Source of the DNA: Escherichia coli
GTDB taxonomy: Bacteria > Pseudomonadota > Gammaproteobacteria > Enterobacterales > Enterobacteriaceae
Reading direction: 5' to 3' (one strand)
Length of the DNA stretch: 64,000 bases
Assembly: GCF_016903815.1 (NCBI RefSeq)
Contig: NZ_CP069973.1
This document shows positions 3,165 to 50,308 of the stretch, piece by piece; positions within the stretch are counted from its first letter, which is position 1; every line of letters starts with the position of its first letter. Position numbers and translations under genes: made by a program. The notes beneath the pieces were generated by a model. The model was not told the DNA's origin, did not search any database, and was given only the letters and a program-made list of their open reading frames with translations.

Positions 3165-3188
3165 AGTTAGCTCCAATTTCCGTAAGGC

Positions 3189-3235: not shown

Positions 3236-3288
3236 TCATTATCTCTGGTAACTGGAGATAATTTTTATCATAAGGGCATAATCGCTAA

Positions 3289-3304
3289 TGTGATCGTAAT
3301 CACA
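3289..3304. promoter_or_regulatory. Perfect-consensus CRP site (TGTGA-N6-TCACA) in the ygcW/yqcE divergent region
   Basis: tgtgatcgtaatcaca read directly; both half-sites match the CRP consensus. Confidence 0.55.
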
Positions 3305-3407
3305 GTGTGATATTCGAATTGTCAAATAATTTTAAAAAGCAGAAGCGTGATTACTCTCACACAACACCACTGCTTTCCATGTTATTTCTTATTGCAATTA
3401 CTAGAGA

Positions 3408-4760: not shown

Positions 4761-4786
4761 GTCCAGAAAATTACAGGAGAAAAATC

Positions 4787-30500: not shown

Positions 30501-30649
30501 TCTCCCCTCCCCCGGTGACGTTTGTTGCCGGGTTTTCTCGTTTTTGGTCACTTACTCATCAACTCATTTCATTTGTTATATGAATGTTTCTTACCACCCT
30601 CACGCGACAAATATCATCACAGTCAATATGTCATACAATTTATATTGCA

Positions 30650-30665
30650 ACGCAAACGTTTCCCT
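30650..30665. promoter_or_regulatory. PurR-box-like motif between ppnN and sdaC
   Basis: ACGCAAACGTTTCCCT fits the PurR operator pattern ANGMAAACGTTTNCNT at every specified position; about 390 bp upstream of the sdaC ATG. Confidence 0.35.
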
Positions 30666-31056
30666 ATTTTCATAAACCGTATTTTATCGCTATGAAAAAG
30701 AAATTATCGCCATGATTAACTAAAAGTATTGATTTTTTCAGTTCAACCTACATATATTGCGCGCCCCGGAAGAAGTCAGATGTCGTTTAATGGGCAAATA
30801 TTGCCCTTAAATTCTCTTTTACTTTTAATTTACAGAGTAAAGCGTTGGGATAATCTATCTTCCAAGTAGATTATTGTATTTGGGATCAAGATCACTGATA
30901 GATACATAACTTGTGTGTATCTTTCCGCCCTCAAATTATTACGGCGGTAAATGATTAAGCCATCGCCGATAGACAGATTTCATTTTTACGGTCAGGCACC
31001 TTCCCGGGCTGAACTGGCTAAAAGCTGAATTATTTGCATTCCTCCAGGAGAAATAG

Positions 31057-32346: not shown

Positions 32347-32403
32347 GTCCTTTCGCGCCGCTTTCGGGCGGCGCTTCCTCCGTTTTAACGCGATGTATTT
32401 CCT

Positions 32404-33771
32404 ATGATTAGCGTATTCGATATTTTCAAAATCGGCATTGGCCCTTCCAGTTCTCATACCGTTGGACCAATGAAAGCGGGTAAACAATTTACCGACGATC
32501 TGATTGCCCGTAACCTGCTTAAAGACGTGACCCGCGTGGTGGTTGACGTGTACGGCTCGCTCTCTCTGACCGGTAAAGGCCACCACACTGATATCGCCAT
32601 TATTATGGGCCTGGCGGGTAACCTGCCGGATACCGTGGATATCGATTCCATCCCTGGTTTTATTCAGGATGTGAATACTCATGGTCGCCTGATGCTGGCA
32701 AACGGTCAGCATGAAGTGGAGTTCCCGGTTGATCAGTGCATGAACTTCCATGCAGACAACCTTTCTCTGCATGAAAACGGTATGCGCATTACCGCGCTGG
32801 CGGGCGATAAAGTCGTTTACAGCCAGACTTACTACTCTATTGGCGGTGGCTTTATCGTTGATGAAGAGCATTTTGGCCAGCAGAATAGCGCACCGGTTGA
32901 AGTTCCTTATCCGTACAGTTCAGCAGCCGATCTGCAAAAACATTGTCAGGAAACCGGGCTGTCACTCTCTGGCCTGATGATGAAAAATGAGCTGGCGCTG
33001 CACAGCAAAGAAGAGCTGGAACAGCACCTGGCGAACGTATGGGAAGTCATGCGTGGCGGTATTGAGCGCGGTATTTCCACCGAAGGCGTGTTGCCTGGCA
33101 AACTGCGCGTTCCACGCCGTGCTGCGGCACTACGCCGGATGCTGGTCAGCCAGGATAAAACCACCACTGACCCGATGGCGGTTGTTGACTGGATCAACAT
33201 GTTTGCACTGGCAGTGAACGAAGAGAACGCTGCTGGCGGACGCGTGGTGACTGCGCCGACTAACGGTGCGTGCGGGATTATCCCGGCAGTGCTGGCGTAC
33301 TACGACAAGTTTATCCGCGAAGTGAACGCTAACTCACTGGCTCGTTACCTGCTGGTAGCCAGTGCCATTGGTTCTCTTTATAAGATGAACGCGTCAATTT
33401 CTGGTGCTGAAGTCGGCTGCCAGGGTGAAGTTGGTGTGGCGTGCTCAATGGCGGCGGCTGGTCTGGCAGAGCTGTTAGGTGCAAGCCCGGCGCAGGTGTG
33501 CATCGCGGCGGAAATCGCCATGGAGCACAACCTCGGTCTGACGTGTGACCCGGTCGCCGGACAGGTCCAGGTGCCATGCATCGAGCGTAACGCCATTGCG
33601 GCAGTAAAAGCGGTGAACGCCGCACGTATGGCGCTACGCCGTACCAGCGAGCCGCGCGTCTGCCTCGATAAAGTTATCGAAACCATGTACGAAACAGGTA
33701 AAGATATGAACGCCAAGTACCGCGAAACCTCTCGCGGCGGCCTGGCAATGAAGATCGTTGCCTGCGATTAA
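32404..33771 (+). CDS. sdaB: L-serine dehydratase 2
   Basis: 455-aa [29 protein letters not shown]... Confidence 0.95.
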
Positions 33772-34638
<867 letters not shown>

Positions 34639-34644
34639 CGGCGA

Positions 34645-34672
34645 GCCGGATACGCCGCAAACGTCGTATCCG
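34645..34672. terminator. Bidirectional hairpin between convergent xni and fucO
   Basis: ccggatacg-ccgcaaacgt-cgtatccgg perfect stem. Confidence 0.5.
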
Positions 34673-34692
34673 GCATTATCACATCAGCGCAT

Positions 34693-35841
34693 TTACCAGG
34701 CGGTATGGTAAAGCTCTACAATATCCTCAAGCGTTGCTTCACGCGGGTTGCCACCGGTACAAACATCATTCAGTGCCGCCTGCGCCAGTGCCGGAATGTC
34801 TTCCTTGCGTACCCCAACATCACGCAAATGTGGCGGAATACCGACATCACGGTTGAGAGCAAACACCGCTTCAACAGCGGCATTACGCGCCTCTTCCAGG
34901 CTCATACCTTCCACTTTCACGCCCATAACGCGCGCGATATCGCGGTACTTCTCACCGGTAAAGTCAGCGTTATAGCGCATGACATGCGGTAGCAGGATGG
35001 CGTTTGCAACACCGTGTGGAGTGTTATAAAACGCGCCCAGTGGATGCGCCATACCATGCACCAACCCTAACCCAACATTCGAGAAGCCCATACCCGCAAC
35101 ATACTGCCCGAGCGCTATTTCTTCTCCGGCATCCTTATCACCAGCAACCGATCCTCGCAGCGCCCCAGCAATGATTTCAATCGCTTTAATGTGCAGTGCA
35201 TCGGTTAGCGCCCACGCGCCACGGGTAATATACCCCTCAATAGCATGAGTGAGCGCATCGACACCCGTCGCAGCTTTCAGCGCTGGAGGCATACCATCCA
35301 TCATGTCAGCGTCAATAAACGCCACCTGCGGGATATCATGCGGATCAACGCAAACAAACTTGCGCCGTTTTTCTTCGTCAGTGATCACGTAGTTAATGGT
35401 CACTTCTGCCGCAGTGCCTGCTGTGGTGGGGATTGCCAGAATCGGTACACTGGGTTTATTGGTCGGGGAAAGCCCTTCCAGGCTACGCACATCGGCAAAC
35501 TCCGGGTTGTTGCTGATAATGCCAATCGCTTTACAAGTATCCTGTGGAGAACCACCACCAATAGCGATCAGGTAATCCGCGCCGCTATTCTGGAATACAC
35601 CGAGCCCTTCTTTGACGACAGTAATTGTTGGGTTGGGCACTACGCCGTCGTAAATCGCCCATGCCAGCCCTGCAGCATCCATCTTATCGGTCACTTTCGC
35701 CACCACGCCGCATTGCACCAGCGTTTTATCGGTGACGATCAGCGCCTTCTGATAACCACGGCGTTTCACCTCATCGGTTAAAGCCCCAACAGCACCCCGA
35801 CCAAACCATGCCGTTTCGTTCAGAATCATTCTGTTAGCCAT
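34693..35841 (-). CDS. fucO: L-1,2-propanediol oxidoreductase (lactaldehyde reductase)
   Basis: ORF 34693..35844 (MMANRMILNE...); iron-containing alcohol dehydrogenase; start at first or second Met. Confidence 0.93.
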   Translation of the reverse strand: MANRMILNETAWFGRGAVGALTDEVKRRGYQKALIVTDKTLVQCGVVAKVTDKMDAAGLAWAIYDGVVPNPTITVVKEGLGVFQNSGADYLIAIGGGSPQDTCKAIGIISNNPEFADVRSLEGLSPTNKPSVPILAIPTTAGTAAEVTINYVITDEEKRRKFVCVDPHDIPQVAFIDADMMDGMPPALKAATGVDALTHAIEGYITRGAWALTDALHIKAIEIIAGALRGSVAGDKDAGEEIALGQYVAGMGFSNVGLGLVHGMAHPLGAFYNTPHGVANAILLPHVMRYNADFTGEKYRDIARVMGVKVEGMSLEEARNAAVEAVFALNRDVGIPPHLRDVGVRKEDIPALAQAALNDVCTGGNPREATLEDIVELYHTAW

Positions 35842-35868
35842 CATCCTTCTCCTTGTTGCTTTACGAAA

Positions 35869-36516
35869 TTACTCTTCAATTCGTAACCCATAGGTTTTGA
35901 ATTTCTCCAGCACTACGGCAATCTCTTCATCGCTCAGCACTGGCACCGGGTCCGTAATCGCCAGGGTCGTCAGGTAAAGTTGCGCCAGCACTTCAACTTC
36001 ATGCGCCAGCCATAACGCTTTTTCCAGATTCACCTCACAAGCGATAAGCCCATGATGTTGTAACAAAGTTGCCTTACGATTTTTGAGAGCCAGCGCAACA
36101 TGTTCAGAAAGTTCACGTGTTCCAAAGGTCGCATAAGGCGCGCAAGGAATAGAATTACCGCCCGCCGCCGCAATCATGTAGTGAATAGCGGGGATCGGTC
36201 GGTTAAGAATGGAAACTGCCGTGCAATGAACGGCATGATTGTGAACAACCGCGTTGGCATCCGGTCTGCTTTGATAGGCTGCCATATGGAAACGCCACTC
36301 GCTGGAAGGAATCTTACCTTCTTCGTATTTGCCGTTGCCATCAACATAGACAATCATATTCTCCGTCATTCTTTCATAAGGAATACCGCTGGGAGTAATC
36401 AACATGCCGTTTTCAAAACGTGTGCTGACATTCCCCGCTGTCCCCTGATTTAACCCAAGGCGCGTCATTTCCAGACAGGTTTCAATTATTTCACGGGATA
36501 AACGTGTTCTTTCCAT
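35869..36516 (-). CDS. fucA: L-fuculose-1-phosphate aldolase
   Basis: 215-aa ORF MERTRLSREIIETCLEMTRLGLNQGTAGNVS... Confidence 0.95.
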   Translation of the reverse strand: MERTRLSREIIETCLEMTRLGLNQGTAGNVSTRFENGMLITPSGIPYERMTENMIVYVDGNGKYEEGKIPSSEWRFHMAAYQSRPDANAVVHNHAVHCTAVSILNRPIPAIHYMIAAAGGNSIPCAPYATFGTRELSEHVALALKNRKATLLQHHGLIACEVNLEKALWLAHEVEVLAQLYLTTLAITDPVPVLSDEEIAVVLEKFKTYGLRIEE

Positions 36517-36648
36517 TTCTATTCTCCAGATACAGTTTCAGCTCGCCTTGTTGCGTAAAACAGCACCGCAAATGAAGACGGGGTTATTTTTAGTAAGGGG
36601 AGGCCACTGAATATCATTGTTCAGTAGCCTGATATCTTTTGGCGATTA

Positions 36649-37647
36649 TTATTTTTTTCTTATGCGCTTAATTAATTTCATTCCTACTTTAACTGTTTTT
36701 TTGACTGGTCTTTCTTCGATCGCGCTTAACATCATTTCGAACGCTTTTTCTGCCCAGGCATTTTCATCCTGCTGCATTGACCAGACATTGTTGGCGAGAA
36801 ATCCCAGCATAGGATGTTCATCGAAAGTGCCAATATTGATTTCTGGCGGTACAGCGCCAAGACGGTCGCGAATCGCGCGGACAGCGCCTTCAAGCACAGG
36901 CAAAGACGAGGCGATAAATGCCTGCGGACATCCCTGCTCTTCAATGAGTTTTTCCATAATGACATAGCCGCCTTCCGGAGTATTTACCGGACCTTCCCGC
37001 ACCCAATCGCGATGGGTAATCCCTTTTTTTGCCAACGCATTCAAATAACCTGTCAGACGATCGCTGATACTCGGCAAACCGGCATCTCCCAGCAAAAACC
37101 ATACTGGAGCCTGCCCGGCCTCAAGAATATTTTGCGTCAGCTTTTCTCCGCCAGAAATATTATTACTCTCTACCAATGCGTTATCGGTATATTTAAAATC
37201 ACGATCGAGTAAAACCATGGGCTTACGAATTTTGCGTAAATGATGCTGCTGATTTTCCAGCGTCGAAGGAACAATAAAAAGACCATCTACATTTCGTGCG
37301 ATAAATGCTTTCGTCAATTTATTTTCATAGTCAACATCATCATAAGTGCAACTGATTGTAAGTTGATATCCGGAACGTCGACAGCGTTGTTCGAGTTTTT
37401 CTGCCAGCGTAGCAAAAAAGACGTTGGATATGTTGGGAACAATCAACCCTAATGTATCAGTTTTGTTAAGCTTAAGGCTGCGAGCGGAATGATTAATGAT
37501 ATAACCATAGCGTTCAACATATTCATTGATACGCGTTTGGGTTTTGACGCTGATTCGATATTGTTCCGCTTTTCCATTTAGCACCAGTCGCACGGTCGTA
37601 ACCGATAAATTCAGGTCGCTGGCTATCTGCTCTACTGTTTTAGCCAT
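36649..37647 (-). CDS. LacI/GalR-family transcriptional regulator
   Basis: 332-aa ORF with N-terminal HTH (MAKTVEQIASDLNLSVTTVRLVLNG...) and periplasmic-binding-like effector domain. Confidence 0.85.
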   Translation of the reverse strand: MAKTVEQIASDLNLSVTTVRLVLNGKAEQYRISVKTQTRINEYVERYGYIINHSARSLKLNKTDTLGLIVPNISNVFFATLAEKLEQRCRRSGYQLTISCTYDDVDYENKLTKAFIARNVDGLFIVPSTLENQQHHLRKIRKPMVLLDRDFKYTDNALVESNNISGGEKLTQNILEAGQAPVWFLLGDAGLPSISDRLTGYLNALAKKGITHRDWVREGPVNTPEGGYVIMEKLIEEQGCPQAFIASSLPVLEGAVRAIRDRLGAVPPEINIGTFDEHPMLGFLANNVWSMQQDENAWAEKAFEMMLSAIEERPVKKTVKVGMKLIKRIRKK

Positions 37648-37711
37648 AGGTATTTCCCAGTTAACATCCAGACGTCAAATCACAATCATAAAAGTATTTT
37701 CAACTTTTGTC

Positions 37712-39292
37712 TTATTGCATCAGTTGGTTAACCGCCTGTTGTTGCTCCCAAAGCGTCAGGTAAACCCGGTATTTACGCTCTAAAAATTCACGGCGTTGTG
37801 GATTTACCTGAATAATCTCTCCGGCTTCAACCATTGCTTTACACGCAGATGTAAAATCCCCCCATGCTCCGCTGGCAACAGCGCCGCTAATTGCTGCGCC
37901 CAACGTAACGGCATCTTCTTCTTGCATCAGGTGGATATCGCAACCTGTCACGTCTGCATATTCGCGTAGCCATAAAGGGTTGTGCGTTGCACCACCACAT
38001 AATGTTAATCGGGTAATGGTATGCCCATTTTCCCGCAGAGTTTCAATAATATGTCTGGTGCCAAAGGCTATTGCCTGTAAAGTCGCAAGATAAAGTCGCG
38101 CGAGCTGATTTTCACCACGCTCCAGTGTTAAGCCATAAACACTGCCTCTGGCATCGGGCCGCGCTCGTGGCGAACGGTTGCCGTGATGATCGGCAAGCAC
38201 ATGTAAATTTCGTGTGGGTTCTGACTCGTTAGCTTCAAGGGCTGCTACCCATTCATTAATCAGTTGAATCGGATGACATCCGCGTTGCTGCGCCTTGTGA
38301 AAAAGATTTGCGCTTGCCCCTGACTCCTGAAGCGTCCACTCCACCAGCGCCCCTGCGGCGCTTTGCCCGCCTTCGGTTAGCCAGTAATTTGGCAACATGG
38401 CCGACCAGTATGGCCCCCAGACGCCAGGGGTGAATATCTCTTTTTCACTACACAGCATATGGCAGTTCGACGTTCCGCTTATCAATGCCAGCGTTCCTAA
38501 TGGGTGAGCGCCAGCCAGCGCCACGCCACCGGCATGGGCATCAATCAAGCCACTGGCCACGATAACATTAGTCGTTAATCCTAACTCTTCAGCAGCTGTG
38601 GCGGTTAACGTTCCCACGGCAGCGCCAGGCGGAAGAATGTCGGCAGGAATTCTTTCAAGCATATCGGTCAGGTCTATCGATTCCAGTAAGCTATGGCTAA
38701 AGCGTTGCTCATGAGCTAGATAATTCCATTTACACGTTAGCGTGCATAATCCCGCGACGTCTCGCCCTGTTGCTTTCCAGACCAGAAAATCCGCCAGATC
38801 GAAAAAGCGATGAGCGGCCTGCCAGGTTTGCGGTAGATGCGTCTTCAACCAACGTAACTTTGGTAACTCCATCTCGACGCTCACTTCGCCGCCAACGTAG
38901 CGCAATGCGGGATCCTTCATTGCGTTAATCTGCGCCGTCTCGACAGTTGCACGATGATCCATCCACATAATAATGTCGTGATTCGCAGATCCACCGGACG
39001 AAACCGCTAAACCCTGGCCTTGTTCATCAAGAACAACCAGCGAGCAGGTAGCGTCAAAACCCAGTGAGCGAATTGCGGAAATGGGGATGCCTGCCAAAGC
39101 TGTCGCCTCTTTCACCGTTTTACAAACTTGTTGCCAGATCTCTGCCGAAGACTGTTCGACACGCTCGCCGCCAGGGCGAAACTGGGAGACGGGCGCAGTA
39201 GCGAATGCCAGCCTGTGGCCACTGGCACTGTAAACGCCTGCCCTGACACTGGCCGATCCGACATCGACACCGAGAAAATAACCGTTGTGCAT
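37712..39292 (-). CDS. FGGY-family pentulose-type kinase (candidate D-ribulokinase)
   Basis: ORF 37712..39412; start set at MHNGYFLGVDVGSASVRAGVY with AGGGAGG RBS (527 aa); DHHGNRSP motif typical of the ribulokinase/pentulose-kinase branch. Confidence 0.8.
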   Translation of the reverse strand: MHNGYFLGVDVGSASVRAGVYSASGHRLAFATAPVSQFRPGGERVEQSSAEIWQQVCKTVKEATALAGIPISAIRSLGFDATCSLVVLDEQGQGLAVSSGGSANHDIIMWMDHRATVETAQINAMKDPALRYVGGEVSVEMELPKLRWLKTHLPQTWQAAHRFFDLADFLVWKATGRDVAGLCTLTCKWNYLAHEQRFSHSLLESIDLTDMLERIPADILPPGAAVGTLTATAAEELGLTTNVIVASGLIDAHAGGVALAGAHPLGTLALISGTSNCHMLCSEKEIFTPGVWGPYWSAMLPNYWLTEGGQSAAGALVEWTLQESGASANLFHKAQQRGCHPIQLINEWVAALEANESEPTRNLHVLADHHGNRSPRARPDARGSVYGLTLERGENQLARLYLATLQAIAFGTRHIIETLRENGHTITRLTLCGGATHNPLWLREYADVTGCDIHLMQEEDAVTLGAAISGAVASGAWGDFTSACKAMVEAGEIIQVNPQRREFLERKYRVYLTLWEQQQAVNQLMQ

Positions 39293-39344
39293 AAAGCCTC
39301 CCTGACGCTGGAGATAACGGGGATGAAAATTCATCCCCAATTTT

Positions 39345-40295
39345 TTATTTCTTACCGAATGGGTGCAGGAGTTTGTCGATTTCTGGCGTGTTAATATTCT
39401 CGGCATTAACAAATTTCACGGGAATATCGATCTCTTTTTCAACGGCTTGCCCCGAAAGGGCCGCGTTCAACGTTTTGATCCCTTGATAGCCAATCTGGTA
39501 TGCATCCTGAACAACAAAGCCCTGAATGACGCCGTTCTTCAGGAAGTTAATAATCGCTTCCGTACTATCAAAACCAATGACCTTCACCTTACCTTTCAGA
39601 TTCTGGCTATCAATGGCATTCGCCACCCCGAGCGTTGAACCTTCATTGGTGCCATAGATCCCAGCAAGATCGGGATTGGCCTGAATCATATCGATAGTTT
39701 TATCCATCGCTTTTTGCGGGTCACCATCGCTGTACTGAACGGGTAAGACTTTAATGTCAGGATATTTTTCTTTCATACGCTCCATGAAGCCTTCCGAGCG
39801 TTCAATAGCGGAAGATGTTCCTGCAACGTGCGCGATAATCCCAACTTTCCCTTTATTATTTACCTGCGAGGCTAAGGCATCAGCTGCCTGAGCACCTGCT
39901 TTACGGTTATTGGTGGCGACAAAACTCACCGGAATGTCTGAATTGATGCCTGAATCAAAGGTCACCACTTTGATACCGCGTGAATTTGCCGTTTCTACCA
40001 GTGGGGCGAGCGCATTCGCGTCGAGGGCTGCCAGAAGCAAGCCATTCGGTTTCTGCGCCATCGCATTTTCGACTAACTGAATTTGCTCGGCTATTTGCGT
40101 TTCATCAGCCGGGCCAACATAGCTGGTTTTATCCCCCAACTCTTTAGCCGCAGCTTCAGTCCCCATTTTTACGGTTTGCCAGAATTCATGTTGGAAACCT
40201 TTACTAACAACCGGAAGATTTAAATCCTTCGCCAGTGCGCTGGAACTTACGCAAGCCAGCAGAGATAACGCATAGATAAAATGCCTGGTTTTCAT
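39345..40295 (-). CDS. periplasmic sugar-binding protein (RbsB-like) of the ABC transporter
   Basis: ORF 39345..40418; start set at MKTRHFIYALSLLACVSSSALA (signal peptide) giving 316 aa. Confidence 0.8.
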   Translation of the reverse strand: MKTRHFIYALSLLACVSSSALAKDLNLPVVSKGFQHEFWQTVKMGTEAAAKELGDKTSYVGPADETQIAEQIQLVENAMAQKPNGLLLAALDANALAPLVETANSRGIKVVTFDSGINSDIPVSFVATNNRKAGAQAADALASQVNNKGKVGIIAHVAGTSSAIERSEGFMERMKEKYPDIKVLPVQYSDGDPQKAMDKTIDMIQANPDLAGIYGTNEGSTLGVANAIDSQNLKGKVKVIGFDSTEAIINFLKNGVIQGFVVQDAYQIGYQGIKTLNAALSGQAVEKEIDIPVKFVNAENINTPEIDKLLHPFGKK

Positions 40296-40368
40296 TGTTG
40301 TACTCCGTTCTGAGTGAATCACCCTTAACGTCAGGGCAGTTGTTTCCCGATAAAACAGGGAGCCTAAG

Positions 40369-41352
40369 TCAACGAATCTTTTTGCGTAATGTATCGAGGT
40401 AAACGGCAGCGACCACAACGACGCCCATCGCGACCATTTGCCAGAACTGGGAGACGCCCATTAAATTGAGGCCATTTTTCAGTACACTCATAATGAAAGC
40501 GCCAATGATTGTGCCGCCAATAGTGCCAATACCGCCCATTAAGCTGGTTCCGCCAATCACTACCGCGGCAATAGCTTCCAGTTCATAACCCACACCTACC
40601 GTCGGTTGTCCGGAGTTGAGACGAGATGCCAGAATGACACCTGCAATCCCCGTTAATAATCCACAGAAGGCATAGACGAAAATTTTCACGCGCTGAACTT
40701 TAATACCAGAAAGATGAGCAGCAACTTCATTACTGCCTACGGCATAGACATAGCGACCAATGACGGTTTTCTTCAGGATGTAAGCGCCGACAAGCGCTAC
40801 AATGACAAGGTAGAAAACAGGATAAGGCAGCACATCAAATAAGCGTCCCTGAGCGAGCGTTTTGAACATCGGGTAATCGGCAAAATAGATGGCGCGCCCG
40901 TCGGTCATCACCATATTGATACCTCTGACGGACATCATCAGGCCCAAGGTAGCGATAAATGGTGGAATGGTCATTTTAGTGACCAACAAACCATTCACAT
41001 AGCCGCACATTCCACCGGCTAAAACACCGGCAATAATACACACTGGCAGCGGCAGGCCCAGTGTGGCGCAAATCCCCACGGCGACACCAGAAAAAGCCAC
41101 CACGGAGCCCAATGAAAGATCGATGCCCGCGGTAATAATGACGAAAGTTACCCCAATGGCCATAATGCCGATAACCGACGTTTGCAGAGCAATCGTCATG
41201 ATATTTTCGGTATTAAAGAAAAAGGGAGAGCTGAAACTAAAAAACAGCACTAATATAATTAAGCTAAAAAGAGGCGCAAGGCGCATCAAAAGTTCTTTAT
41301 TTATCTTTATTTTCTTATTATTACTGTCTGGAGAGGTTACAGAGATAGTCAT
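40369..41352 (-). CDS. sugar ABC transporter permease (RbsC-like)
   Basis: 327-aa hydrophobic ORF with multiple TM segments. Confidence 0.8.
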   Translation of the reverse strand: MTISVTSPDSNNKKIKINKELLMRLAPLFSLIILVLFFSFSSPFFFNTENIMTIALQTSVIGIMAIGVTFVIITAGIDLSLGSVVAFSGVAVGICATLGLPLPVCIIAGVLAGGMCGYVNGLLVTKMTIPPFIATLGLMMSVRGINMVMTDGRAIYFADYPMFKTLAQGRLFDVLPYPVFYLVIVALVGAYILKKTVIGRYVYAVGSNEVAAHLSGIKVQRVKIFVYAFCGLLTGIAGVILASRLNSGQPTVGVGYELEAIAAVVIGGTSLMGGIGTIGGTIIGAFIMSVLKNGLNLMGVSQFWQMVAMGVVVVAAVYLDTLRKKIR

Positions 41353-41355
41353 AAT

Positions 41356-42870
41356 TTAATCCTCTAACGTCGCGTATTGCATAATTTTTTCTTGTGTCGC
41401 TTCTTTTGCGCTAAGTTCGCCGGTAATTCGACCACTGCGCATCACTAAAATACGGTCGCACATTCCTAACACCTCAGGCAATTCAGAGGAGATCATGATG
41501 ATTGATTTCCCTTTTGCCACCAGGCGATTCATTAACTCATAGATTTCCAGTTTGGCGCCAACATCAATGCCGCGAGTGGGTTCATCGAAGATTAAAATAT
41601 CAGTATCTTTACACACCCAACGTGCAATTATAATTTTCTGCTGGTTTCCTCCACTTAGATTTAATGCCGCCTGTTCAAGATTTGGCGTTTTAATCCTTAA
41701 CGCTTTTACCTGTTCCTCACTGGTTTGTTGGCAACGACGCGAATCGACATTCCCAAAACGATCGGAATATTCAGGGTAGTTTCCTAACATAATATTTCGT
41801 TCAACAGATAAATTCAGCGCCAGCCCTTCTTTTTTGCGGTCTTCCGTCAGGTAACTAATTCCCTGCTGAATAGCATCCGAAATATCTTTAATAACGGTTT
41901 CCTTACCATTTAATTTTAGCGTTCCGCTGTCAATAGAATCCGCACCAAAAATCGCACGCGCAAGTTCAGTACGCCCCGCGCCCATCAGTCCGGCAAAGCC
42001 GAGGATCTCGCCACGATAAAGCGTAAAATTAATATCGTTCAGGACGCCTTTGCGCGTCAGTCCGTTTACCTCCAGAACCGGAATCCGCTGCTGCAAGGCC
42101 TCGCGGCGGGGATAGATATTCCCTAAATCGCGACCAACCATCATGGCAATCAGATCGCTGATTTTTACGCACTCATAATCCACCGTGCTGATGTACTGAC
42201 CATCACGCATTACAGTCGCACGGTCGGCAATTAGCGCCAACTCTTCCAGACGGTGGGAGATATAAACAATGCCGGTCCCCTGCTCTTTCAATAACCGGGT
42301 GACGCGAAATAAGCTTTCAATTTCAGTTTCTGTTAACGCCGCAGTAGGTTCATCCATAATGAGAATCCTGGCGTTAACTGAAATGGCCTTGGCAATTTCT
42401 ACCATCTGCTGCTGAGCTACCGTAAGGTCGGCAACCAGAGTATCTGGTTTGATCGCCAAATTTAATTTTTGCAAAATTTCAATCGTCGCCTGGCGTTGCT
42501 GTTTTTCATCCAGACGCCAGCGATTTTTTTTACAAAACTCCCTGCCGATAAAAATATTTTCTTCTACTGTAAGCTCGGGAAATAAATTAAATTCCTGGTG
42601 AATAATAGTAATACCTACGTTTTGCGCACTTAACGGATCAGAAAATGAGACTGGTTTATCTTCAAAAATTATTTCGCCTTCATCAGGTTGATAAACCCCC
42701 GACAAAATTTTCATTAAGGTAGATTTTCCTGCACCATTTTCACCTAATAATGCATGAACCTCGCCCCGGCGTAGGGAAAATTGCACGTCATTAAGCGCCA
42801 ACACTCCAGGAAAGCGTTTGGTGATATGCTTCATTTGCAAAAATGTTTCGGACATTGCAGCTTTCCTCAA
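41356..42870 (-). CDS. sugar ABC transporter ATP-binding protein with two NBDs (RbsA/CUT2-like)
   Basis: 504-aa ORF with Walker A GENGAGKST, second P-loop GLMGAGRTE and signature LSGGNQQK. Confidence 0.85.
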   Translation of the reverse strand: MRKAAMSETFLQMKHITKRFPGVLALNDVQFSLRRGEVHALLGENGAGKSTLMKILSGVYQPDEGEIIFEDKPVSFSDPLSAQNVGITIIHQEFNLFPELTVEENIFIGREFCKKNRWRLDEKQQRQATIEILQKLNLAIKPDTLVADLTVAQQQMVEIAKAISVNARILIMDEPTAALTETEIESLFRVTRLLKEQGTGIVYISHRLEELALIADRATVMRDGQYISTVDYECVKISDLIAMMVGRDLGNIYPRREALQQRIPVLEVNGLTRKGVLNDINFTLYRGEILGFAGLMGAGRTELARAIFGADSIDSGTLKLNGKETVIKDISDAIQQGISYLTEDRKKEGLALNLSVERNIMLGNYPEYSDRFGNVDSRRCQQTSEEQVKALRIKTPNLEQAALNLSGGNQQKIIIARWVCKDTDILIFDEPTRGIDVGAKLEIYELMNRLVAKGKSIIMISSELPEVLGMCDRILVMRSGRITGELSAKEATQEKIMQYATLED

Positions 42871-42987
42871 TAATCAGAAACTGAAAATGTGAAGTACGGC
42901 ATAAACGTCGCTACTAAAGCCATCTCCACTGTGATACGAATAACCTTTGAATAAATATTCATCGCATCAATCTATTCTTCGCATTTT

Positions 42988-43003
42988 GCTAACTCGAGTT
43001 AGC
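42988..43003. promoter_or_regulatory. 16-bp perfect palindrome GCTAACTCGAGTTAGC (candidate operator), upstream of the ABC operon
   Basis: Read directly; 118 bp upstream of the ATPase start codon on the minus strand; identical to the site at 43227. Confidence 0.5.
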
Positions 43004-43226
43004 GATCGCCTTTTAAAGCTATTTTAGGTATACAAATTAGCCAAATCATTTGAGTTAAAACTGTGATGCATAACCATTAAAATCTAATAACCATATGATT
43101 ATACGTAAAATTTATTTTTCTCCCGCTAAATAATAATTTGACAGAGATCGTATTTTAACCACTTCTCGTGAAGCCCCTCACATTTCAACAACAAAAAAGT
43201 TGTGCATAAAAAGCCTACAAACCTAA

Positions 43227-43242
43227 GCTAACTCGAGTTAGC
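43227..43242. promoter_or_regulatory. 16-bp perfect palindrome GCTAACTCGAGTTAGC (candidate operator), upstream of fucI
   Basis: Read directly; 83 bp upstream of the fucI ATG; identical to the site at 42988, 239 bp away. Confidence 0.5.
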
Positions 43243-43324
43243 AAATAATGACCAATACTACTGCTTCGGTGGTTTCCTTTCTCCGCCTTAGCAGAGCGCC
43301 AATAAAGCGAGATGAGGAATCCTG

Positions 43325-45100
43325 ATGAAAATTAATACGTTACCGAAAATTGGTATCCGCCCGGTTATTGACGGTCGTCGCATGGGTGTTCGTGAGTCGC
43401 TTGAAGAACAAACAATGAATATGGCGAAAGCCACGGCCACACTGCTGACCGAGAAACTGCGCCATGCCTGCGGAGCTGCCGTCGAGTGTGTCATTTCCGA
43501 TACCTGTATCGCGGGTATGGCTGAAGCCGCTGCTTGCGAAGAAAAATTCAGCAGCCAGAATGTAGGCCTCACCATTACGGTAACGCCTTGCTGGTGCTAT
43601 GGCAGTGAAACCATCGACATGGATCCAACCCGCCCGAAAGCCATTTGGGGCTTTAACGGCACTGAACGTCCCGGCGCTGTTTACCTGGCAGCGGCTCTGG
43701 CAGCTCACAGCCAGAAAGGCATCCCGGCATTCTCCATTTACGGTCATGACGTTCAGGATGCCGATGACACATCGATTCCAGCCGATGTTGAAGAAAAACT
43801 GCTGCGCTTTGCCCGCGCCGGTTTGGCAGTCGCCAGCATGAAAGGTAAAAGCTATCTGTCGCTGGGCGGCGTTTCGATGGGTATCGCTGGTTCCATCGTT
43901 GATCACAACTTCTTTGAATCCTGGCTGGGAATGAAAGTCCAGGCGGTGGATATGACCGAACTGCGTCGCCGTATCGATCAGAAGATTTACGACGAAGCCG
44001 AACTGGAAATGGCGCTGGCCTGGGCTGATAAAAACTTCCGCTACGGCGAAGATGAAAATAACAAACAGTATCAACGCAATGCCGAGCAAAGCCGCGCAGT
44101 TCTGCGCGAAAGTTTACTGATGGTGATGTGTATCCGCGACATGATGCAAGGCAACAGCAAACTGGCCGATATTGGTCGCGTGGAAGAATCACTTGGCTAC
44201 AACGCCATCGCTGCGGGCTTCCAGGGACAACGCCACTGGACCGATCAATATCCCAATGGTGACACTGCCGAAGCGATCCTCAACAGTTCATTTGACTGGA
44301 ATGGCGTGCGCGAACCCTTTGTCGTGGCGACCGAAAACGACAGTCTTAACGGCGTGGCAATGCTAATGGGTCACCAGCTCACCGGCACCGCTCAGGTATT
44401 TGCCGATGTGCGTACCTACTGGTCACCAGAAGCAATTGAGCGTGTAACGGGGCATAAACTCGATGGACTGGCAGAACACGGCATCATCCATTTGATCAAC
44501 TCAGGTTCTGCTGCGCTGGACGGTTCCTGTAAACAACGCGACAGCGAAGGTAACCCGACGATGAAGCCACACTGGGAAATCTCTCAGCAAGAGGCTGACG
44601 CTTGCCTCGCCGCTACCGAATGGTGCCCGGCGATCCACGAATACTTCCGTGGCGGCGGTTACTCTTCCCGCTTCCTTACCGAAGGCGGCGTCCCGTTCAC
44701 CATGACTCGTGTCAACATCATCAAAGGCCTGGGACCGGTACTGCAAATCGCGGAAGGCTGGAGCGTGGAATTGCCGAAGGATGTGCATGACATCCTCAAC
44801 AAACGCACCAACTCAACCTGGCCAACCACCTGGTTTGCACCGCGCCTCACCGGTAAAGGGCCGTTTACGGATGTGTACTCGGTAATGGCGAACTGGGGCG
44901 CTAACCATGGGGTTCTGACCATCGGCCACGTTGGCGCAGACTTTATCACTCTCGCCTCCATGCTGCGTATCCCGGTATGTATGCACAACGTTGAAGAGAC
45001 CAAAGTGTATCGTCCTTCTGCCTGGGCTGCGCACGGCATGGATATTGAAGGCCAGGATTACCGCGCTTGCCAGAACTACGGTCCGTTGTACAAGCGTTAA
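43325..45100 (+). CDS. fucI: L-fucose isomerase
   Basis: 591-aa [41 protein letters not shown]...; GAGGAA RBS. Confidence 0.95.
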
Positions 45101-45178
45101 TACATTACTCCCTGATGTGATGCCCGGTCGCTCCGGCTACCGGGCCTGAACAAGCAAGAGTGGTTAGCCGGATAAGCA

Positions 45179-46627
45179 ATGTTATCCGGCTATATTGCAG
45201 GAGCGATTATGAAACAAGAAGTTATCCTGGTACTCGACTGTGGCGCGACCAATGTCAGGGCCATCGCGGTTAATCGGCAGGGCAAAATTGTTGCCCGCGC
45301 CTCAACGCCTAATGCCAGCGATATCGCGATGGAAAACAACACCTGGCACCAGTGGTCTTTAGACGCCATTTTGCAACGCTTTGCTGATTGCTGTCGGCAA
45401 ATCAATAGTGAACTGACTGAATGCCACATCCGCGGTATCGCCGTCACCACCTTTGGTGTGGATGGCGCTCTGGTAGATAAGCAAGGCAATCTGCTCTATC
45501 CGATCATTAGCTGGAAATGTCCGCGAACAGCAGCGGTTATGGACAATATTGAACAGTTGATCTCCGCACAGCGGTTGCAGGCTATTTCTGGCGTCGGAGC
45601 CTTTAGTTTCAATACGTTATATAAGTTGGTGTGGTTGAAAGAAAATCATCCACAACTGCTGGAACGCGCGCACGCCTGGCTCTTCATTTCGTCGCTGATT
45701 AACCACCGTTTAACCGGCGAATTCACTACTGATATCACGATGGCCGGAACCAGCCAGATGCTGGATATCCAGCAACGCGATTTCAGTCCGCAAATTTTAC
45801 AAGCCACCGGTATTCCACACCGACTCTTCCCTCGTCTGGTGGAAGCGGGTGAACAGATTGGTACGCTACAGAACAGCGCCGCAGCAATGCTCGGCTTACC
45901 CGTTGGCATACCGGTGATTTCCGCAGGTCACGATACCCAGTTCGCCCTTTTTGGCGCAGGTGCCGAACAAAATGAACCCGTGCTCTCCTCCGGTACATGG
46001 GAAATTTTAATGGTTCGCAGCGCCCAGGTTGATACTTCGCTGTTAAGTCAGTACGCCGGTTCCACCTGCGAACTGGATAGCCAGGCAGGGTTGTATAACC
46101 CAGGTATGCAATGGCTGGCATCCGGCGTGCTGGAATGGGTGAGAAAACTGTTCTGGACGGCTGAAACACCCTGGCAAATGTTGATTGAAGAGGCTCGTCT
46201 GATCGCGCCTGGCGCGGATGGCGTGAAAATGCAGTGTGATTTATTGTCGTGTCAGAACGCTGGCTGGCAAGGAGTGACGCTTAATACTACGCGGGGGCAT
46301 TTCTATCGCGCGGCGCTGGAAGGGTTAACTGCGCAATTACAGCGCAATCTACAGATGCTGGAAAAAATCGGGCACTTTAAAGCCTCTGAATTATTGTTAG
46401 TCGGCGGAGGAAGTCGCAACACATTGTGGAATCAGATTAAAGCCAATATGCTTGATATTCCGGTAAAAGTTCTCGACGATGCCGAAACGACCGTCGCAGG
46501 AGCTGCGCTGTTCGGTTGGTATGGCGTAGGGGAATTTAACAGCCCGGAAGAAGCCCGTGCACAGATTCATTATCAGTACCGTTATTTCTACCCGCAAACT
46601 GAACCTGAATTTATAGAGGAAGTGTGA
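45179..46627 (+). CDS. fucK: L-fuculokinase
   Basis: 482-aa FGGY kinase ORF; synteny. Confidence 0.93.
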
Positions 46628-46628
46628 A

Positions 46629-47051
46629 ATGCTGAAAACAATTTCGCCGTTAATTTCTCCCGAACTATTGAAAGTGCTGGCAGAGATGGGACATGGAGAT
46701 GAAATTATTTTTTCCGATGCTCACTTTCCCGCCCATTCGATGGGACCGCAGGTGATCCGCGCTGATGGCCTGTTGGTGAGCGACTTGCTCCAGGCGATTA
46801 TCCCGTTATTTGAACTGGACAGTTACGCACCGCCGCTGGTGATGATGGCAGCGGTAGAAGGTGACACTCTCGATCCTGAAGTAGAACGACGTTACCGTAA
46901 TGCGCTTTCACTACAAGCCCCGTGTCCTGACATCATCCGCATCAATCGTTTTGCGTTTTATGAACGGGCGCAAAAAGCCTTTGCGATCGTTATCACAGGC
47001 GAACGAGCGAAGTACGGGAATATTCTTTTAAAAAAAGGGGTAACACCGTAA
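46629..47051 (+). CDS. fucU: L-fucose mutarotase
   Basis: 140-aa ORF; synteny. Confidence 0.93.
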
Positions 47052-47108
47052 TCTCATACCGGTACGCCCGCATGACGCGGGCGGTTATCGAATGATGGGG
47101 TGAAAAAT

Positions 47109-47840
47109 ATGAAAGCGGCACGCCAGCAAGCGATAGTCGACCTGCTGCTGAACCATACCAGCCTGACCACGGAAGCTCTCTCTGAACAGCTAAAGGTCAG
47201 TAAAGAAACCATTCGTCGCGATCTCAATGAATTACAGACGCAGGGTAAAATTCTGCGCAATCATGGACGCGCTAAATATATCCACCGTCAAAATCAAGAC
47301 AGTGGCGATCCCTTTCACATCAGGCTGAAAAGCCATTATGCGCATAAAGCAGATATCGCGCGCGAGGCGCTCGCGTGGATTGAAGAAGGGATGGTGATAG
47401 CCTTAGACGCCAGTTCAACTTGCTGGTATCTGGCACGCCAGTTGCCTGACATCAACATTCAGGTCTTCACCAATAGCCATCCGATTTGCCATGAACTCGG
47501 TAAACGCGAACGCATTCAACTGATCAGTTCCGGCGGCACACTTGAGCGCAAATATGGCTGTTACGTCAATCCCTCGCTGATTTCCCAACTTAAATCGCTG
47601 GAAATCGATCTGTTTATTTTTTCTTGTGAAGGGATCGATAGCAGCGGCGCACTGTGGGACTCCAATGCCATCAACGCTGATTACAAATCGATGCTATTAA
47701 AACGTGCCGCGCAATCGTTGTTATTGATTGATAAAAGTAAATTTAATCGTTCAGGGGAAGCCCGCATCGGGCATCTGGATGAGGTAACGCACATTATTTC
47801 TGATGAGCGCCAGGTTGCAACTTCTTTGGTAATAGCCTGA
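47109..47840 (+). CDS. fucR: DeoR-family L-fucose operon activator
   Basis: ORF 47100..47840; start set at MKAARQQAIVDLLLNHTSL giving 243 aa. Confidence 0.9.
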   Translation: MKAARQQAIVDLLLNHTSLTTEALSEQLKVSKETIRRDLNELQTQGKILRNHGRAKYIHRQNQDSGDPFHIRLKSHYAHKADIAREALAWIEEGMVIALDASSTCWYLARQLPDINIQVFTNSHPICHELGKRERIQLISSGGTLERKYGCYVNPSLISQLKSLEIDLFIFSCEGIDSSGALWDSNAINADYKSMLLKRAAQSLLLIDKSKFNRSGEARIGHLDEVTHIISDERQVATSLVIA

Positions 47841-47883
47841 CGGAAAGGGTAGCAGGCCGGAGACGACGCCCCGGCCTTGCCTG

Positions 47884-48984
47884 TTATCGCTCGTCGCGAC
47901 GACCACCCACCGCAGCCCAGATGCGGCGGACGTGCACCGTCACTTCTTCGCGATCGTGATACAACTGCCGCGCCTGAATCTGAGCATTTATGCCATGTTC
48001 ATCAAGCTGTGCCTGAATATACGCCAGATTGTGTGACACTTCTTCGTAGCGTTTTTTCATCGGCAGTTTGAGGTTGAAAATGGTTTCACGACACCAGCCA
48101 TTAACCAGCCACTGCGCCATCAATGCCGCAACTTTCGCCGGTTTTTCAACCATATCGCATACCATCCAGGAGATATTGCTGCGCGTCGGACGGAATTTGA
48201 AACCGTCTTCCCGCAGCCACGTCACCTGTCCGGTATCCATCAGACTTTGCGCCATCGGGCCGTTGTCGACGGAATAAACCCACATGTTGCGCTTCACCAG
48301 TTGGTAGGTCCAGCCGCCAGGGCAAGCGCCTAAATCCACCGCCCACATCCCGTTCGCCAGGCGTTCATCCCACTCATCCGCAGGAATAAACACATGAAAT
48401 GCCTCTTCCAGTTTGAGTGTGGAACGACTCGGCGCATCTGCCGGAAATTTCAGGCGCGGAATGCCCATATAGAACGGCGAATTATTGTTGCTGTATGAGT
48501 AACCGGTATAGCAGCAGCCTGGTGCAATAAAGAATACATGCACAACCGGACGCTTCGGCGTTTCATAGTTCGCCAGCACCCCAGCATCGCGCAAGGCAGC
48601 GCGTAGCGGCACGGTGAATTTACGGCAGAATTTCAGCAACTCTTTGCTTTCGTTGGTATCGGCAACTTCAACACGCAGTTCACCGCCCTTCTCTACTACA
48701 CCCTGTAACATGCCGACAATGGGGGTAATACGATCTTCTGGCGGCAAATGCTGCAGGAGTTCCCCCACCACAAACCACTGGCGGGCAAAAATTAATGAAC
48801 TGAACGGCAGCTCACGGATTAACTTATCGCCATCATCAGGTTGATAACATTCATAAATGACATAACCCGCATTCTCTTTCACGCGGGCAAAACCGAAAAT
48901 TTCCCGCTGGCCGGCTTTATCGGTAATTTCTGCGGCGCACTCTTTTTCAAACCCCGGACGGCACAGCAATACAACCTTATTCAT
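47884..48984 (-). CDS. rlmM: 23S rRNA 2'-O-ribose C2498 methyltransferase
   Basis: 366-aa ORF; synteny. Confidence 0.9.
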
Positions 48985-49372
48985 GACTTACGCCCTTGCG
49001 CTTTAAACGGATAGCACCAACTAACATTAACGCCCAGCCCGCAAGGAAGCTCACGCCGCCAACCGGAGTGACAAACGCCCACAAACGCAGATGGGACAGT
49101 GCCAGGCAATAAAGGCTGCCGCTGAACAGCACCGTGCCTAACGCGAGGAAAACGCTACTCCAGTAAAACCAGATACTGATGCGACGCTGCATTGCCACCG
49201 CCAGACCTAAGATCGCCAGCGTATGAAACGCCTGGTATTCGAGACCGGTCTGGATCCAGCCCATCTCAACGGCCCCCATGGTTTTACTTAACACATGCGC
49301 GCCAAAAGCGCCCAGAGCCACAAAAATGAAGCCGCTAATGGCGGCGAAAATCAGCATAAAACGGCTGGTCAT
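48977..49372 (-). CDS. ygdD: DUF423 inner-membrane protein
   Basis: 131-aa hydrophobic ORF; overlaps the rlmM start. Confidence 0.85.
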
Positions 49373-49390
49373 GGTCGTACCCTACGTAAA

Positions 49391-50308
49391 TTATTGTTCA
49401 TAACGAAAGCGGAATTTTTCTTGTTCAGCAGCGGCTTTCGCCAGGATCCATTGACGAAAGGCGGCTATTTTACCCAGTTCTGCCTGGCTGTCATGACAAA
49501 CCAGATAAAAAGCGTTTTTACTGACCAGAACATCATTAAACGGGCAAACAAGACGTCCGGCCTCGATTTCAGATTGCGCCATCACGTTATTTGCCAGCGC
49601 CACTCCCTGCCCGTGGATAGCCGCTTGCAGCACCATGGCGCTATGGCTAAAAATTGGCCCTTGCTGAACGTTGATATGATTTAACCCCAACTGTCGGGTA
49701 TATGTCTGCCAGTCACGGCGCGACGCATCATGTAATAACGTATGTTTAGCCAGATCTTCCGGGGTCTTCAAGGGTTTTTCGCCAGTCAGCAGTAGCGGCG
49801 AACACACCGGCAATAAATATTCGGCGTACAGTTTTTCCACCCGTAGCCCCGGCCAGTTGCCCCGACCATAAAATATCGCCACATCAACATCATCCGCCAG
49901 CTTATCTTCCTGACGATCAACCGCCTGGATTCGAACGTCAATTCCCGGATAAGCTGAATTAAAGCTGGAAAGTCGCGGAACCAACCAATGAATGGCGAAA
50001 CTGGGGAGTAAACTGACCGTCAACGCCCCCTTGGCGCTACGGGCCTGGAGTTTACGCGTCGCTTCGGTTAATTGCGAAAATATCTCTTTGATATCGAGGA
50101 AATAGCTTTGCCCTTCCTCGGTCAGCAGGAGTGAACGATTACGGCGGCGGAACAGTTTTAGCCCCAAAAAATCCTCAAGAGACTTGATTTGATGACTTAC
50201 TGCGGCCTGGGTCACAAAAAGCTCTTCTGCTGCGCGAGTGAAACTTAAATGGCGTGCTGCAGCATCAAAAACTCGTAAGGCATTTAGCGGTGGTAATCGT
50301 TTAGACAT
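49391..50308 (-). CDS. gcvA: LysR-family glycine cleavage regulator
   Basis: 305-aa ORF with LysR HTH (MSKRLPPLNALRVFDAAARHLSFTRAAEEL...). Confidence 0.95.
   Translation of the reverse strand: MSKRLPPLNALRVFDAAARHLSFTRAAEELFVTQAAVSHQIKSLEDFLGLKLFRRRNRSLLLTEEGQSYFLDIKEIFSQLTEATRKLQARSAKGALTVSLLPSFAIHWLVPRLSSFNSAYPGIDVRIQAVDRQEDKLADDVDVAIFYGRGNWPGLRVEKLYAEYLLPVCSPLLLTGEKPLKTPEDLAKHTLLHDASRRDWQTYTRQLGLNHINVQQGPIFSHSAMVLQAAIHGQGVALANNVMAQSEIEAGRLVCPFNDVLVSKNAFYLVCHDSQAELGKIAAFRQWILAKAAAEQEKFRFRYEQ

Follow-up and report, generated by a model that had tools for sequence, protein, structure and literature searches.

In the 64,000-nucleotide stretch of the Escherichia coli contig NZ_CP069973.1 analyzed here (the window, whose numbering is used throughout), fucI, encoding L-fucose/D-arabinose isomerase, is preceded by a 469-bp divergent intergenic region (42856-43324) in place of fucP and the promoters that serve the fucose genes in E. 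coli K-12. This fucI leader is probably the native divergent control region of a widespread alternative fuc locus, gained by recombination and run by a LacI-type repressor together with CRP. The argument draws on the way the K-12 region has been replaced, on the distribution of the resulting locus, on the conserved anatomy of the leader, on the association of its two palindromes with particular genes in distant bacteria, and on the absence of recognizable boxes for the K-12 activator FucR.

The recombined segment and its carriers

BLAST alignment to the K-12 record covers window positions 29800-36495 and 43313-49500; between 36517 and 43312 no K-12 homology was found even at a word size of 7, and the K-12 fucA-fucP intergenic region is entirely missing. 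The lost K-12 region holds PfucAO, with the validated operators OFucR2/3 and OCrp2/3, and PfucPIK, with OCrp0/1 (PMC11011485). The left junction, at 36297/36298, lies about 219 bp inside fucA: the sequence is identical to K-12 up to 36297, and the donor-type 5′ 219 bp of the gene (the left recombination tract, 36298-36516, minus strand) have 66-76% identity to K-12 per 50-bp window, or about 75% overall. The right crossover falls at 43339/43340, at codon 5 of fucI, with approximately 99% K-12-like sequence from 43340 on. As delimited by the K-12 alignment, the right recombination tract (43313-43339, plus strand) consists of the ribosome-binding site TGAGGAATC and fucI codons 1-5, of which codons 3-5 differ from those of K-12 (MKINT here, MKKIS at the start of the K-12 N-terminus MKKISLPKIG). 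In all, a replaced tract of 7,042 bp (36298-43339) stands for about 2.1 kb of K-12.

Because both crossovers lie inside homologous genes, the donor would already have had fucA and fucI flanking the five genes between them. An earlier sequence-only reading of the stretch had treated the locus as an island; by the position of its crossovers in the alignment, the event is an allelic replacement by homologous recombination within fucA and fucI, not an island insertion. Several other proposals of that reading agree with the alignment: the fucPIK promoter architecture is gone, in that the K-12 fucA-fucP region and fucP are both absent; the first fucI codons do differ from K-12, placing the junction at the gene start as had been suspected; the distance between fucA and the neighboring regulator gene, put at about 130 bp, measures 132 bp; and the junction sequences differ from K-12 by more than an added insert. 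The ribosome-binding site GAGGAA that it had assigned to fucI as the gene's own is present, but it is not new: TGAGGAATC is identical to sequence in the K-12 fucP-fucI spacer and is ancestral.

The left tract (36298-36516) is 100% identical in both E. coli subtypes of the locus, and the second sub-lineage (strain 50579417, about 98% identical) has exactly the same junctions; identical junctions in two subtypes point to a single acquisition or founding event. The fucI N-terminus of E. whittamii is also MKINT. Despite this common feature E. whittamii was ruled out as the direct donor because it is too divergent, with an overall DNA identity of 87.6% and a figure of 91% for the kinase gene product DarK.

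Of 5,426 complete E. coli genomes, 381-382 (7.0%) carry the entire segment, among them REL606, BL21 and E. coli C, to whose kinase gene that of the window has 99.9% nucleotide identity, and whose gene order and fucI leader are alike. By these measures the window locus is the known E. coli B-type L-fucose-D-arabinose (darK) locus, and the rewiring of fucose control, which had been presented as a peculiarity of one strain, would belong to a long-known variant. DarK is the D-ribulokinase of the E. coli B L-fucose-D-arabinose cluster (Elsinghorst and Mortlock, 1994, as cited in PMC12307932), and the context of DarK within fuc is that of the largest clade of Escherichia D-ribulokinases (50 of 96 strains; PMC12307932). 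B strains grow on D-arabinose and K-12 does not (PMC3446290; PMC6150544), a phenotype reported for REL606 and BL21 only. A fucose-operon variant with an ATP-binding cassette (ABC) transporter instead of fucP was described by Saif et al. (2023; PMC10221146) in 50 of 1,058 genomes and 7.5% of isolates, a frequency similar to that in the complete genomes here. In the same study BL21 grew slowly on fucose after a long lag, like a K-12 fucP deletion mutant, and its fucI mRNA was higher on fucose than on glucose by quantitative reverse-transcription PCR (PMC10221146). REL606 has the further peculiarity that its fucA is interrupted by IS1A (4381-5805 of the REL606 record), unlike the fucA of the window, which has no IS1. 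This insertion probably contributes to the fucose-negative state of REL606 while BL21 grows slowly on fucose, a phenotype for which the literature has given loss of fucose transport as the cause.

Relatives of the locus were collected by a DarK scan of one genome per species, followed by tblastn mapping. The core order (fucI and fucK, leader, ATPase, permease, binding protein, DarK, fucA) is found in 13 further loci, the taxa being E. whittamii, seven full-length Citrobacter, Lelliottia, Huaxiibacter, Enterobacter hormaechei, C. freundii M-21, Atlantibacter and Affinibrenneria. The regulator is also present in 11 of the 13, and none was detected in the two Affinibrenneria loci; an eighth Citrobacter locus breaks off at the permease, yet has the regulator–fucA–fucO side. 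fucU and fucO lie outside, or are missing from, some of the fetched flanks.

The fucI leader and its candidate binding proteins

The leader has a G+C content of 36%, against 50% for the window. It had been described as 454 bp of AT-rich non-coding DNA; both qualities hold, but the length is 469 bp, the lower figure stemming from a longer open reading frame (ORF) for the ATPase with a TTG start, where the conserved start is an ATG at 42855 preceded by the ribosome-binding site GAGGAAAG. No ORF in the leader is conserved across genera. One of 25 codons (43248-43325), whose TGA overlaps the fucI ATG as TGATG, was considered and rejected: it has no Shine-Dalgarno sequence and, while kept in E. whittamii, is down to 7 codons in Citrobacter. 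Rfam gave no matches between 36300 and 43500 at E up to 1, and hence no known riboswitch, leader or small RNA.

Alignment of 15 leaders from seven genera provides a phylogenetic footprint in which two palindromes, two CRP sites and putative -35 and -10 elements are conserved amid an unalignable AT-rich background. At the left end is O1 (42988-43003), a perfect 16-bp palindrome, GCTAACTCGAGTTAGC, and a proposed operator. It is followed by conserved blocks at 43008-43028 and 43039-43053 and by the predicted promoter of the ABC-darK-regulator(-fucAO) genes (43016-43044, minus strand), with -35 TTGGCT (43044-43039), a 17-bp spacer, -10 TAGCTT (43021-43016) and a start near 43008, which would place O1 at about +5 to +20. 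CRP-like site 1, TGTGAtgcataACCAT (43062-43077), has a strong and conserved left half (AAAnTGTGA) and a weak right half. An AT-rich spacer of 57 bp (43080-43136), free in sequence and invariant in length across the seven genera, leads to a conserved block, TTTGACAGAGATCGTATTTTAACCACTTCT (TTTGACAGAGATCGTATTTTAACCAC in the alignment; 43137-43166, plus strand), directly upstream of CRP site 2. Conservation of this block is confined to Escherichia, Citrobacter and the Lelliottia group, E. whittamii and Huaxiibacter included; C. freundii M-21, Atlantibacter and Affinibrenneria have unrelated sequence in its place. CRP site 2, cGTGAagccccTCACA (43167-43182), fits the consensus TGTGA-N6-TCACA at 9 of 10 positions, and its half-sites are invariant in 15/15 leaders. 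The predicted fucI promoter (43200-43229, plus strand) comprises -35 TTGTGC, an 18-bp spacer and -10 TAAGCT, with a start near 43236; the second copy of GCTAACTCGAGTTAGC, O2 (43227-43242), overlaps the predicted -10 and start. TTGT (43200-43203), CTA(A/T)GCT running into O2, and the GAGGA ribosome-binding site are likewise conserved in the alignment.

The distances between these elements are as constrained as the elements themselves. O1 and O2 are 239-240 bp apart, O1 and CRP site 1 74-75 bp (start to start), and CRP site 2 and O2 59 bp, in each case in 15/15 leaders; the outer flanks of the cassette vary, at 59-265 bp and 82-106 bp. With the outer flanks variable and the inner distances fixed, it is the length of the central, non-conserved spacer that is invariant. 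The centers of the two CRP sites are 105 bp apart, or ten helical turns. Judged by this footprint, the leader is a conserved control cassette with CRP sites of its own rather than leftover DNA, and the constant distance between the palindromes across a non-conserved spacer suggests looping or phasing.

At class I promoters CRP binds at a site centered at -61.5 (also -72.5 or -92.5). The starts near 43236 and 43008 follow from assuming the -61.5 geometry, with which the conserved hexamers then fit; CRP site 2 would thus lie at about -61.5 of the predicted fucI start. A class II reading of the same site (-41.5) was rejected in favor of -61.5, the -10 that it implies, GCATAA, being poor and not conserved. 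Both promoters are predicted from conservation only: matches to the leader in generic sigma-70 and terminator scans are at chance level and were not used as evidence. CRP site 2 itself is less easily a chance match, since GTGA-N6-TCACA has four strand-wise matches in the 64 kb, at three distinct places (one a palindrome), against 0.38 expected, with CRP site 2 among them.

The palindrome GCTAACTCGAGTTAGC occurs exactly twice in the 64 kb, even with three mismatches allowed (chance expectation 0.13). Farther afield, the pattern GCTNNNTCGANNTAGC precedes the darK homologue by 27-106 bp in some 30 distant loci of three proteobacterial classes, with Brenneria, Proteus, Silvania, Mixta, Franconibacter, Propionivibrio and Accumulibacter as their sources. 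Many of these encode a homologue of the locus regulator that is 53-59% identical, with an almost invariant helix-turn-helix N-terminus (MAKTVEQIA..LNLS.TTVR). Motif and regulator homologue are both present in 29 loci and both absent in 25, with 15 loci having the motif only (that is, no regulator within the fetched flank) and 11 the regulator only (Fisher p = 0.003); the darK homologues of Photorhabdus and Xenorhabdus, a natural control, have neither. A central CG is typical of LacI-family operators and is present in the palindrome. A text search of the literature for the palindrome returned short hairpin RNA loop sequences only.

The protein in question, encoded at 36649-37647 (minus strand), is matched by LacI-family models over its full length and is closest to the Cra/fructose-sucrose repressor subfamily, although its score against TIGR02417, 234 bits, is below the curated cut-off of 390; in databases it has only generic names. 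By its position beside ECD_02649, the BL21 counterpart of the gene is ECD_02648. That the protein binds the twin palindromes is a well supported if indirect proposal.

Some of the distant loci have a gene content worth recording for its own sake. In Brenneria roseae (record L021, 9970-19759; others are similar), the palindrome is followed by the darK homologue and then by genes for a 550-aa protein with a weak match to the FucI C-terminal domain, a DHDPS-family lyase and a BNR sialidase-like protein, along with a TctCBA-type transporter and a homologue of the same LacI-type regulator. The set suggests a pathway in which an acidic sugar is cleaved to D-arabinose, with conversion then via D-ribulose to D-ribulose-5-phosphate; a substrate resembling 3-deoxy-D-manno-octulosonate is a guess.

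In K-12, PfucAO starts 63 nt upstream of fucA and has a minimal region of -270 to -1, within which two CRP sites and two FucR sites, ccgaaaaCGGtCAtt and ttaagagCGGtCAtt, have been validated, OCrp0 and OCrp1 serving PfucPIK (Zhang et al., 2024; PMC11011485). The validated FucR sites share the core CGGTCAT/ATGACCG, present in four copies of alternating orientation within 95 bp of the K-12 intergenic region. In the window there is no exact copy of CGGTCAT in the 132-bp or 469-bp gaps and no cluster across 33-49 kb; in the other taxa, too, the equivalent gaps and leaders lack it, except for a single copy in Affinibrenneria. The sequence-only reading had allowed that fucI might still be driven from a conserved FucR-dependent promoter; by this core search none is visible in either gap. 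The gene fucR itself (47109-47840, plus strand) is the resident K-12-type allele, one residue off K-12 by its RefSeq protein accession. Among the loci of this layout, only those of E. coli and eight from Citrobacter were found to retain it. In E. whittamii 11 bp replace the approximately 800 bp between fucU and rlmM (equivalent to 47054-47854), and the sequence beyond fucU gave no FucR/DeoR-type homologue in Huaxiibacter, C. freundii M-21, Atlantibacter or Affinibrenneria, the flanks from Lelliottia and E. hormaechei being too short. FucR would have lost its known targets at this locus, and the proposed rewiring of control to a LacI-type repressor and CRP appears well supported.

Readings of the control region

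A mechanism that would accommodate these observations can be outlined. An ancestor of these E. coli strains would have received the segment from an Escherichia-like donor, losing fucP, PfucPIK, PfucAO and all known FucR boxes and acquiring the ABC transporter, the D-ribulokinase DarK, the Cra-like LacI-family regulator and a 255-bp cassette. The cassette would be read as O1, a leftward ABC promoter, CRP site 1, the 57-bp AT-rich spacer, the conserved block, CRP site 2, a rightward fucI promoter and O2: in effect, two weak promoters placed back to back, each aided by a CRP dimer near -61.5 (class I). The locus repressor would occupy both palindromes, at O2 covering the fucI -10 and start and at O1 lying about +5 to +20 of the ABC operon, with repression probably co-operative through a 239-bp loop enclosing both promoters. 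A sugar of the pathway would lift repression: D-arabinose or D-ribulose, and probably L-fucose or L-fuculose or a phosphate ester. Elsinghorst and Mortlock reportedly found in 1988 that, in E. coli B, L-fucose and D-arabinose induce D-ribulokinase co-ordinately with the fucose enzymes, that constitutive mutants express the whole set, and that fuculose-1-phosphate is not the inducer. One repressor shared by all these genes would produce such behavior.

A bolder extension is offered tentatively, as somewhat more apt to fail than to hold: the fucose genes of some 7% of E. coli, and those of several other enterobacterial genera, may have ceased to be a FucR regulon, with one Cra-like repressor governing both fucIKU(R) and the ABC-darK-regulator-fucAO genes and fucR left an orphan. 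The repressor-operator-darK module may have been recruited from a D-arabinose-yielding pathway of other proteobacteria (operator before darK together with a FucI-like isomerase, DHDPS-family lyase, BNR sialidase-like protein and TTT transporter), and D-arabinose or D-ribulose, not fuculose-1-phosphate, may be what is sensed.

Several observations weigh against control by the LacI-type repressor and CRP as outlined. The promoter elements are weak matches, picked for their conservation and their fit to CRP geometry where a generic scan performs at chance level, and the overlap or close succession of start and operator holds for predicted starts that themselves come from conserved hexamers and CRP geometry. 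CRP site 1 has just one good half-site, and the block at 43137-43166, to which no known factor could be matched, sits at an activator's position. The co-occurrence of motif and regulator is imperfect, given the 15 motif-only and 11 regulator-only loci, and Affinibrenneria has twin operators with no regulator gene detected in the fetched locus. The intact fucR of E. coli and of eight Citrobacter species hints at a remaining role, and higher BL21 fucI mRNA on fucose fits FucR, a LacI-type repressor or CRP de-repression equally. A search for the BL21 and REL606 locus tags led to PMC6150544 only, and the literature yielded no transcription-start, binding or expression data for the fucI leader.

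One alternative that takes up some of these points is continued activation of fucI by FucR, and perhaps of the ABC operon as well, at leader sites that are non-canonical or degenerate; the LacI-type regulator would then be limited to the ABC and darK genes or add a second layer. fucR is intact and K-12-like here and is kept in all eight Citrobacter loci of this layout; BL21 fucI is higher on fucose than on glucose (PMC10221146); and the block at 43137-43166 lies directly upstream of CRP site 2, much as the key FucR site of K-12 PfucAO lies just upstream of the key CRP site (PMC11011485). The same block, however, is equally conserved in E. whittamii, which lacks fucR, as well as in Lelliottia, in Huaxiibacter (no fucR found in its flank) and in E. 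hormaechei. The leader does contain a near-match to the FucR motif, AGTATTGGTCATTAT (43245-43259, minus strand), but its one-mismatch core at 43248-43254 was rejected as a candidate site: it departs from the motif at the most conserved CGG, falls downstream of the predicted start, is not kept in E. whittamii or in Citrobacter, and is of a kind expected by chance about 1.7 times per 469 bp. With no CGGTCAT cluster anywhere in the locus either, continued activation by FucR is judged unlikely.

A question also arises as to the palindromes themselves: is the adjacent LacI-family protein their binder, is it some other regulator, such as Cra or another global factor, or are they not binding sites at all? 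The palindrome agrees at 12 of 16 positions with the idealized Cra operator, GCTGAATCGATTCAGC, and the Affinibrenneria operators without a regulator gene in the fetched locus would be compatible with a factor encoded elsewhere. Four of the eight half-site positions nevertheless depart from the Cra consensus in both half-sites, and the association of motif with regulator homologue in distant taxa (p = 0.003), together with a near-invariant MAKTVEQIA..LNLS.TTVR in 53-56% identical relatives from loci with the same palindrome, favors the adjacent protein; a different binder is very unlikely. Still more improbable, in our estimate, is that the leader is largely a passive remnant of recombination, its palindromes being a hairpin, REP-like (repetitive extragenic palindromic) element, terminator or scar and fucI being expressed constitutively or by read-through. 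The palindrome can form a 6-bp stem, its copy at 43242-43227 is flagged as terminator-like on the minus strand, and generic promoter matches are at chance level. The cassette elements and their spacings are, on the other hand, kept across seven genera in otherwise unalignable surroundings; the palindrome appears again ahead of darK homologues from three proteobacterial classes and, unlike REP elements, has no further copies in the window; and neither junction coincides with a palindrome, one being within fucA and the other within fucI. Moreover, O1 shifts toward symmetry in C. freundii (GCTGCGTCGACGTAGC) and in Atlantibacter (one asymmetric position), where O2 is asymmetric, a change tolerable for a dimeric protein and not for a hairpin.

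Should control by the LacI-type repressor and CRP be correct, the consequences would be mainly for what is assumed about familiar strains. Fucose use is a colonization and signaling trait of gut E. coli, and the K-12 rules (FucR, fuculose-1-phosphate, FucP) are routinely carried over to every strain, BL21, REL606 and E. coli C among them. With another regulator and another inducer, models of fucose and D-arabinose use, of propanediol evolution by way of fucAO and of BL21 engineering would need new wiring, and fucR may be dispensable in these strains. The cassette, with its twin operators and twin CRP sites in fixed geometry, would provide a compact natural case of one repressor acting on two divergent promoters. 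Even so, this would be an incremental gain, as both locus and phenotype were already described in 1988-1994 and 2023, and a LacI-type repressor with CRP is ordinary bacterial control in an interesting fixed-geometry arrangement.

Comparison with known systems and remaining features

Restriction mapping from 1994 is said to have placed a 5.2-kb insert between fucA and a retained fucP; to our knowledge, that work gave no account of junctions in fucA and fucI, of twin operators, of CRP sites or of the loss of FucR boxes. fucP is absent from the window sequence, as Saif et al. state for their variant (PMC10221146) and unlike what that map showed. The accessible part of PMC10221146 likewise contains no description of the fucA and fucI junctions, twin operators, CRP sites or FucR-box loss. 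The locus itself is thus known, and the cis-regulatory cassette and the loss of FucR targets appear to be undescribed in the literature searched.

The K-12 fuc control region and that of the window have the same general plan, with divergent promoters between the fucA-side and fucI-side operons, CRP sites for each and an identical fucI ribosome-binding site, and yet no sequence homology: FucR boxes are present in K-12 and absent here, the first right-hand gene is fucP in K-12 and fucI in the window, and five extra genes precede fucA in the window. The K-12 regulator is a DeoR-type activator, that of the window a predicted LacI-type repressor with twin operators. In the latter respect the locus resembles the paired-operator LacI-family systems (lac O1/O2/O3, gal OE/OI, Cra promoters), with a locus-encoded LacI-family protein, palindromic operators with central CG, an operator over or just downstream of each predicted start, fixed spacing and CRP as co-activator. 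It differs from them in having one predicted operator pair for two back-to-back promoters and two CRP sites inside a putative 239-bp loop, and its regulator scores under the Cra equivalog cut-off. The Rbl D-ribulose locus of Citrobacter rodentium also combines an ABC sugar transporter and an FGGY D-ribulokinase in one operon, but it has no cognate regulator, has a KpsF-like isomerase, is not within fuc and is absent from E. coli (PMC12307932), whereas the window locus encodes a LacI-type regulator of its own and is joined to the fucose genes.

The gene order of the window was taken from the sequence, its ORF list and the RefSeq annotation of an identical record. On the minus strand, fucO (34693-35844), an intact fucA (35869-36516) and the regulator gene are followed by darK (37712-39292), whose product is an FGGY pentulose kinase by TIGR01315 (531 bits, cut-off 409). 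Next, in the position of the absent fucP, as in "Variant 2" of PMC10221146, are genes assigned by annotation and profile matches to a ribose-type (CUT2) ABC transporter (39345-42855): substrate-binding protein (39345-40295), permease (40369-41352) and ATPase (41356-42855). On the plus strand, fucI (43325-45100) is now the first gene of fucIKUR, with fucK, fucU and fucR downstream. The solved structures nearest to the substrate-binding protein are 4rxt_A (E = 1e-54) and 4wut_A (1e-51), deposited merely as "sugar/ribose ABC transporter"; the entries presumably have D-arabinose and D-fucose bound.

Two RNA features may be added. The 132-bp spacer that runs from the stop codon of the regulator gene to the ATG of fucA (36517-36648, minus strand) has no K-12 homology, and scans of it gave neither a FucR or CRP element nor a consensus promoter or terminator. 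Its minus-strand RNA is predicted to form two hairpins (-33.4 kcal/mol, z = -2.3), the stems of which, GGCUACUGAA/UUCAGUGGCC and one resembling CGUCUU..AAGACG, are partly conserved in E. whittamii and Citrobacter; the equivalent spacer is just about 30 bp in Lelliottia, Huaxiibacter and E. hormaechei. This RNA may be an intercistronic processing or stability element, and fucAO are probably co-transcribed as the tail of the ABC-darK-regulator transcript. In the predicted fucI 5′ untranslated region, a possible stem-loop with a pyrimidine-rich loop (43261-43294, plus strand; CTGC..GGTGG/CCGCC..GCAG) is weak: compensatory changes occur in 3 of 9 pairs among nine sequences, and the consensus energy is -8.4 kcal/mol.

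Elsewhere in the window, the other three strand-wise matches to GTGA-N6-TCACA, at two distinct places, fall at 3289-3361. They lie in a divergent gap between a gene for a short-chain dehydrogenase (2379-3239, minus strand) and one for a major facilitator superfamily transporter (3483-4760, plus strand), with an FGGY kinase gene after the latter. The arrangement is probably a further divergent sugar locus under CRP control.

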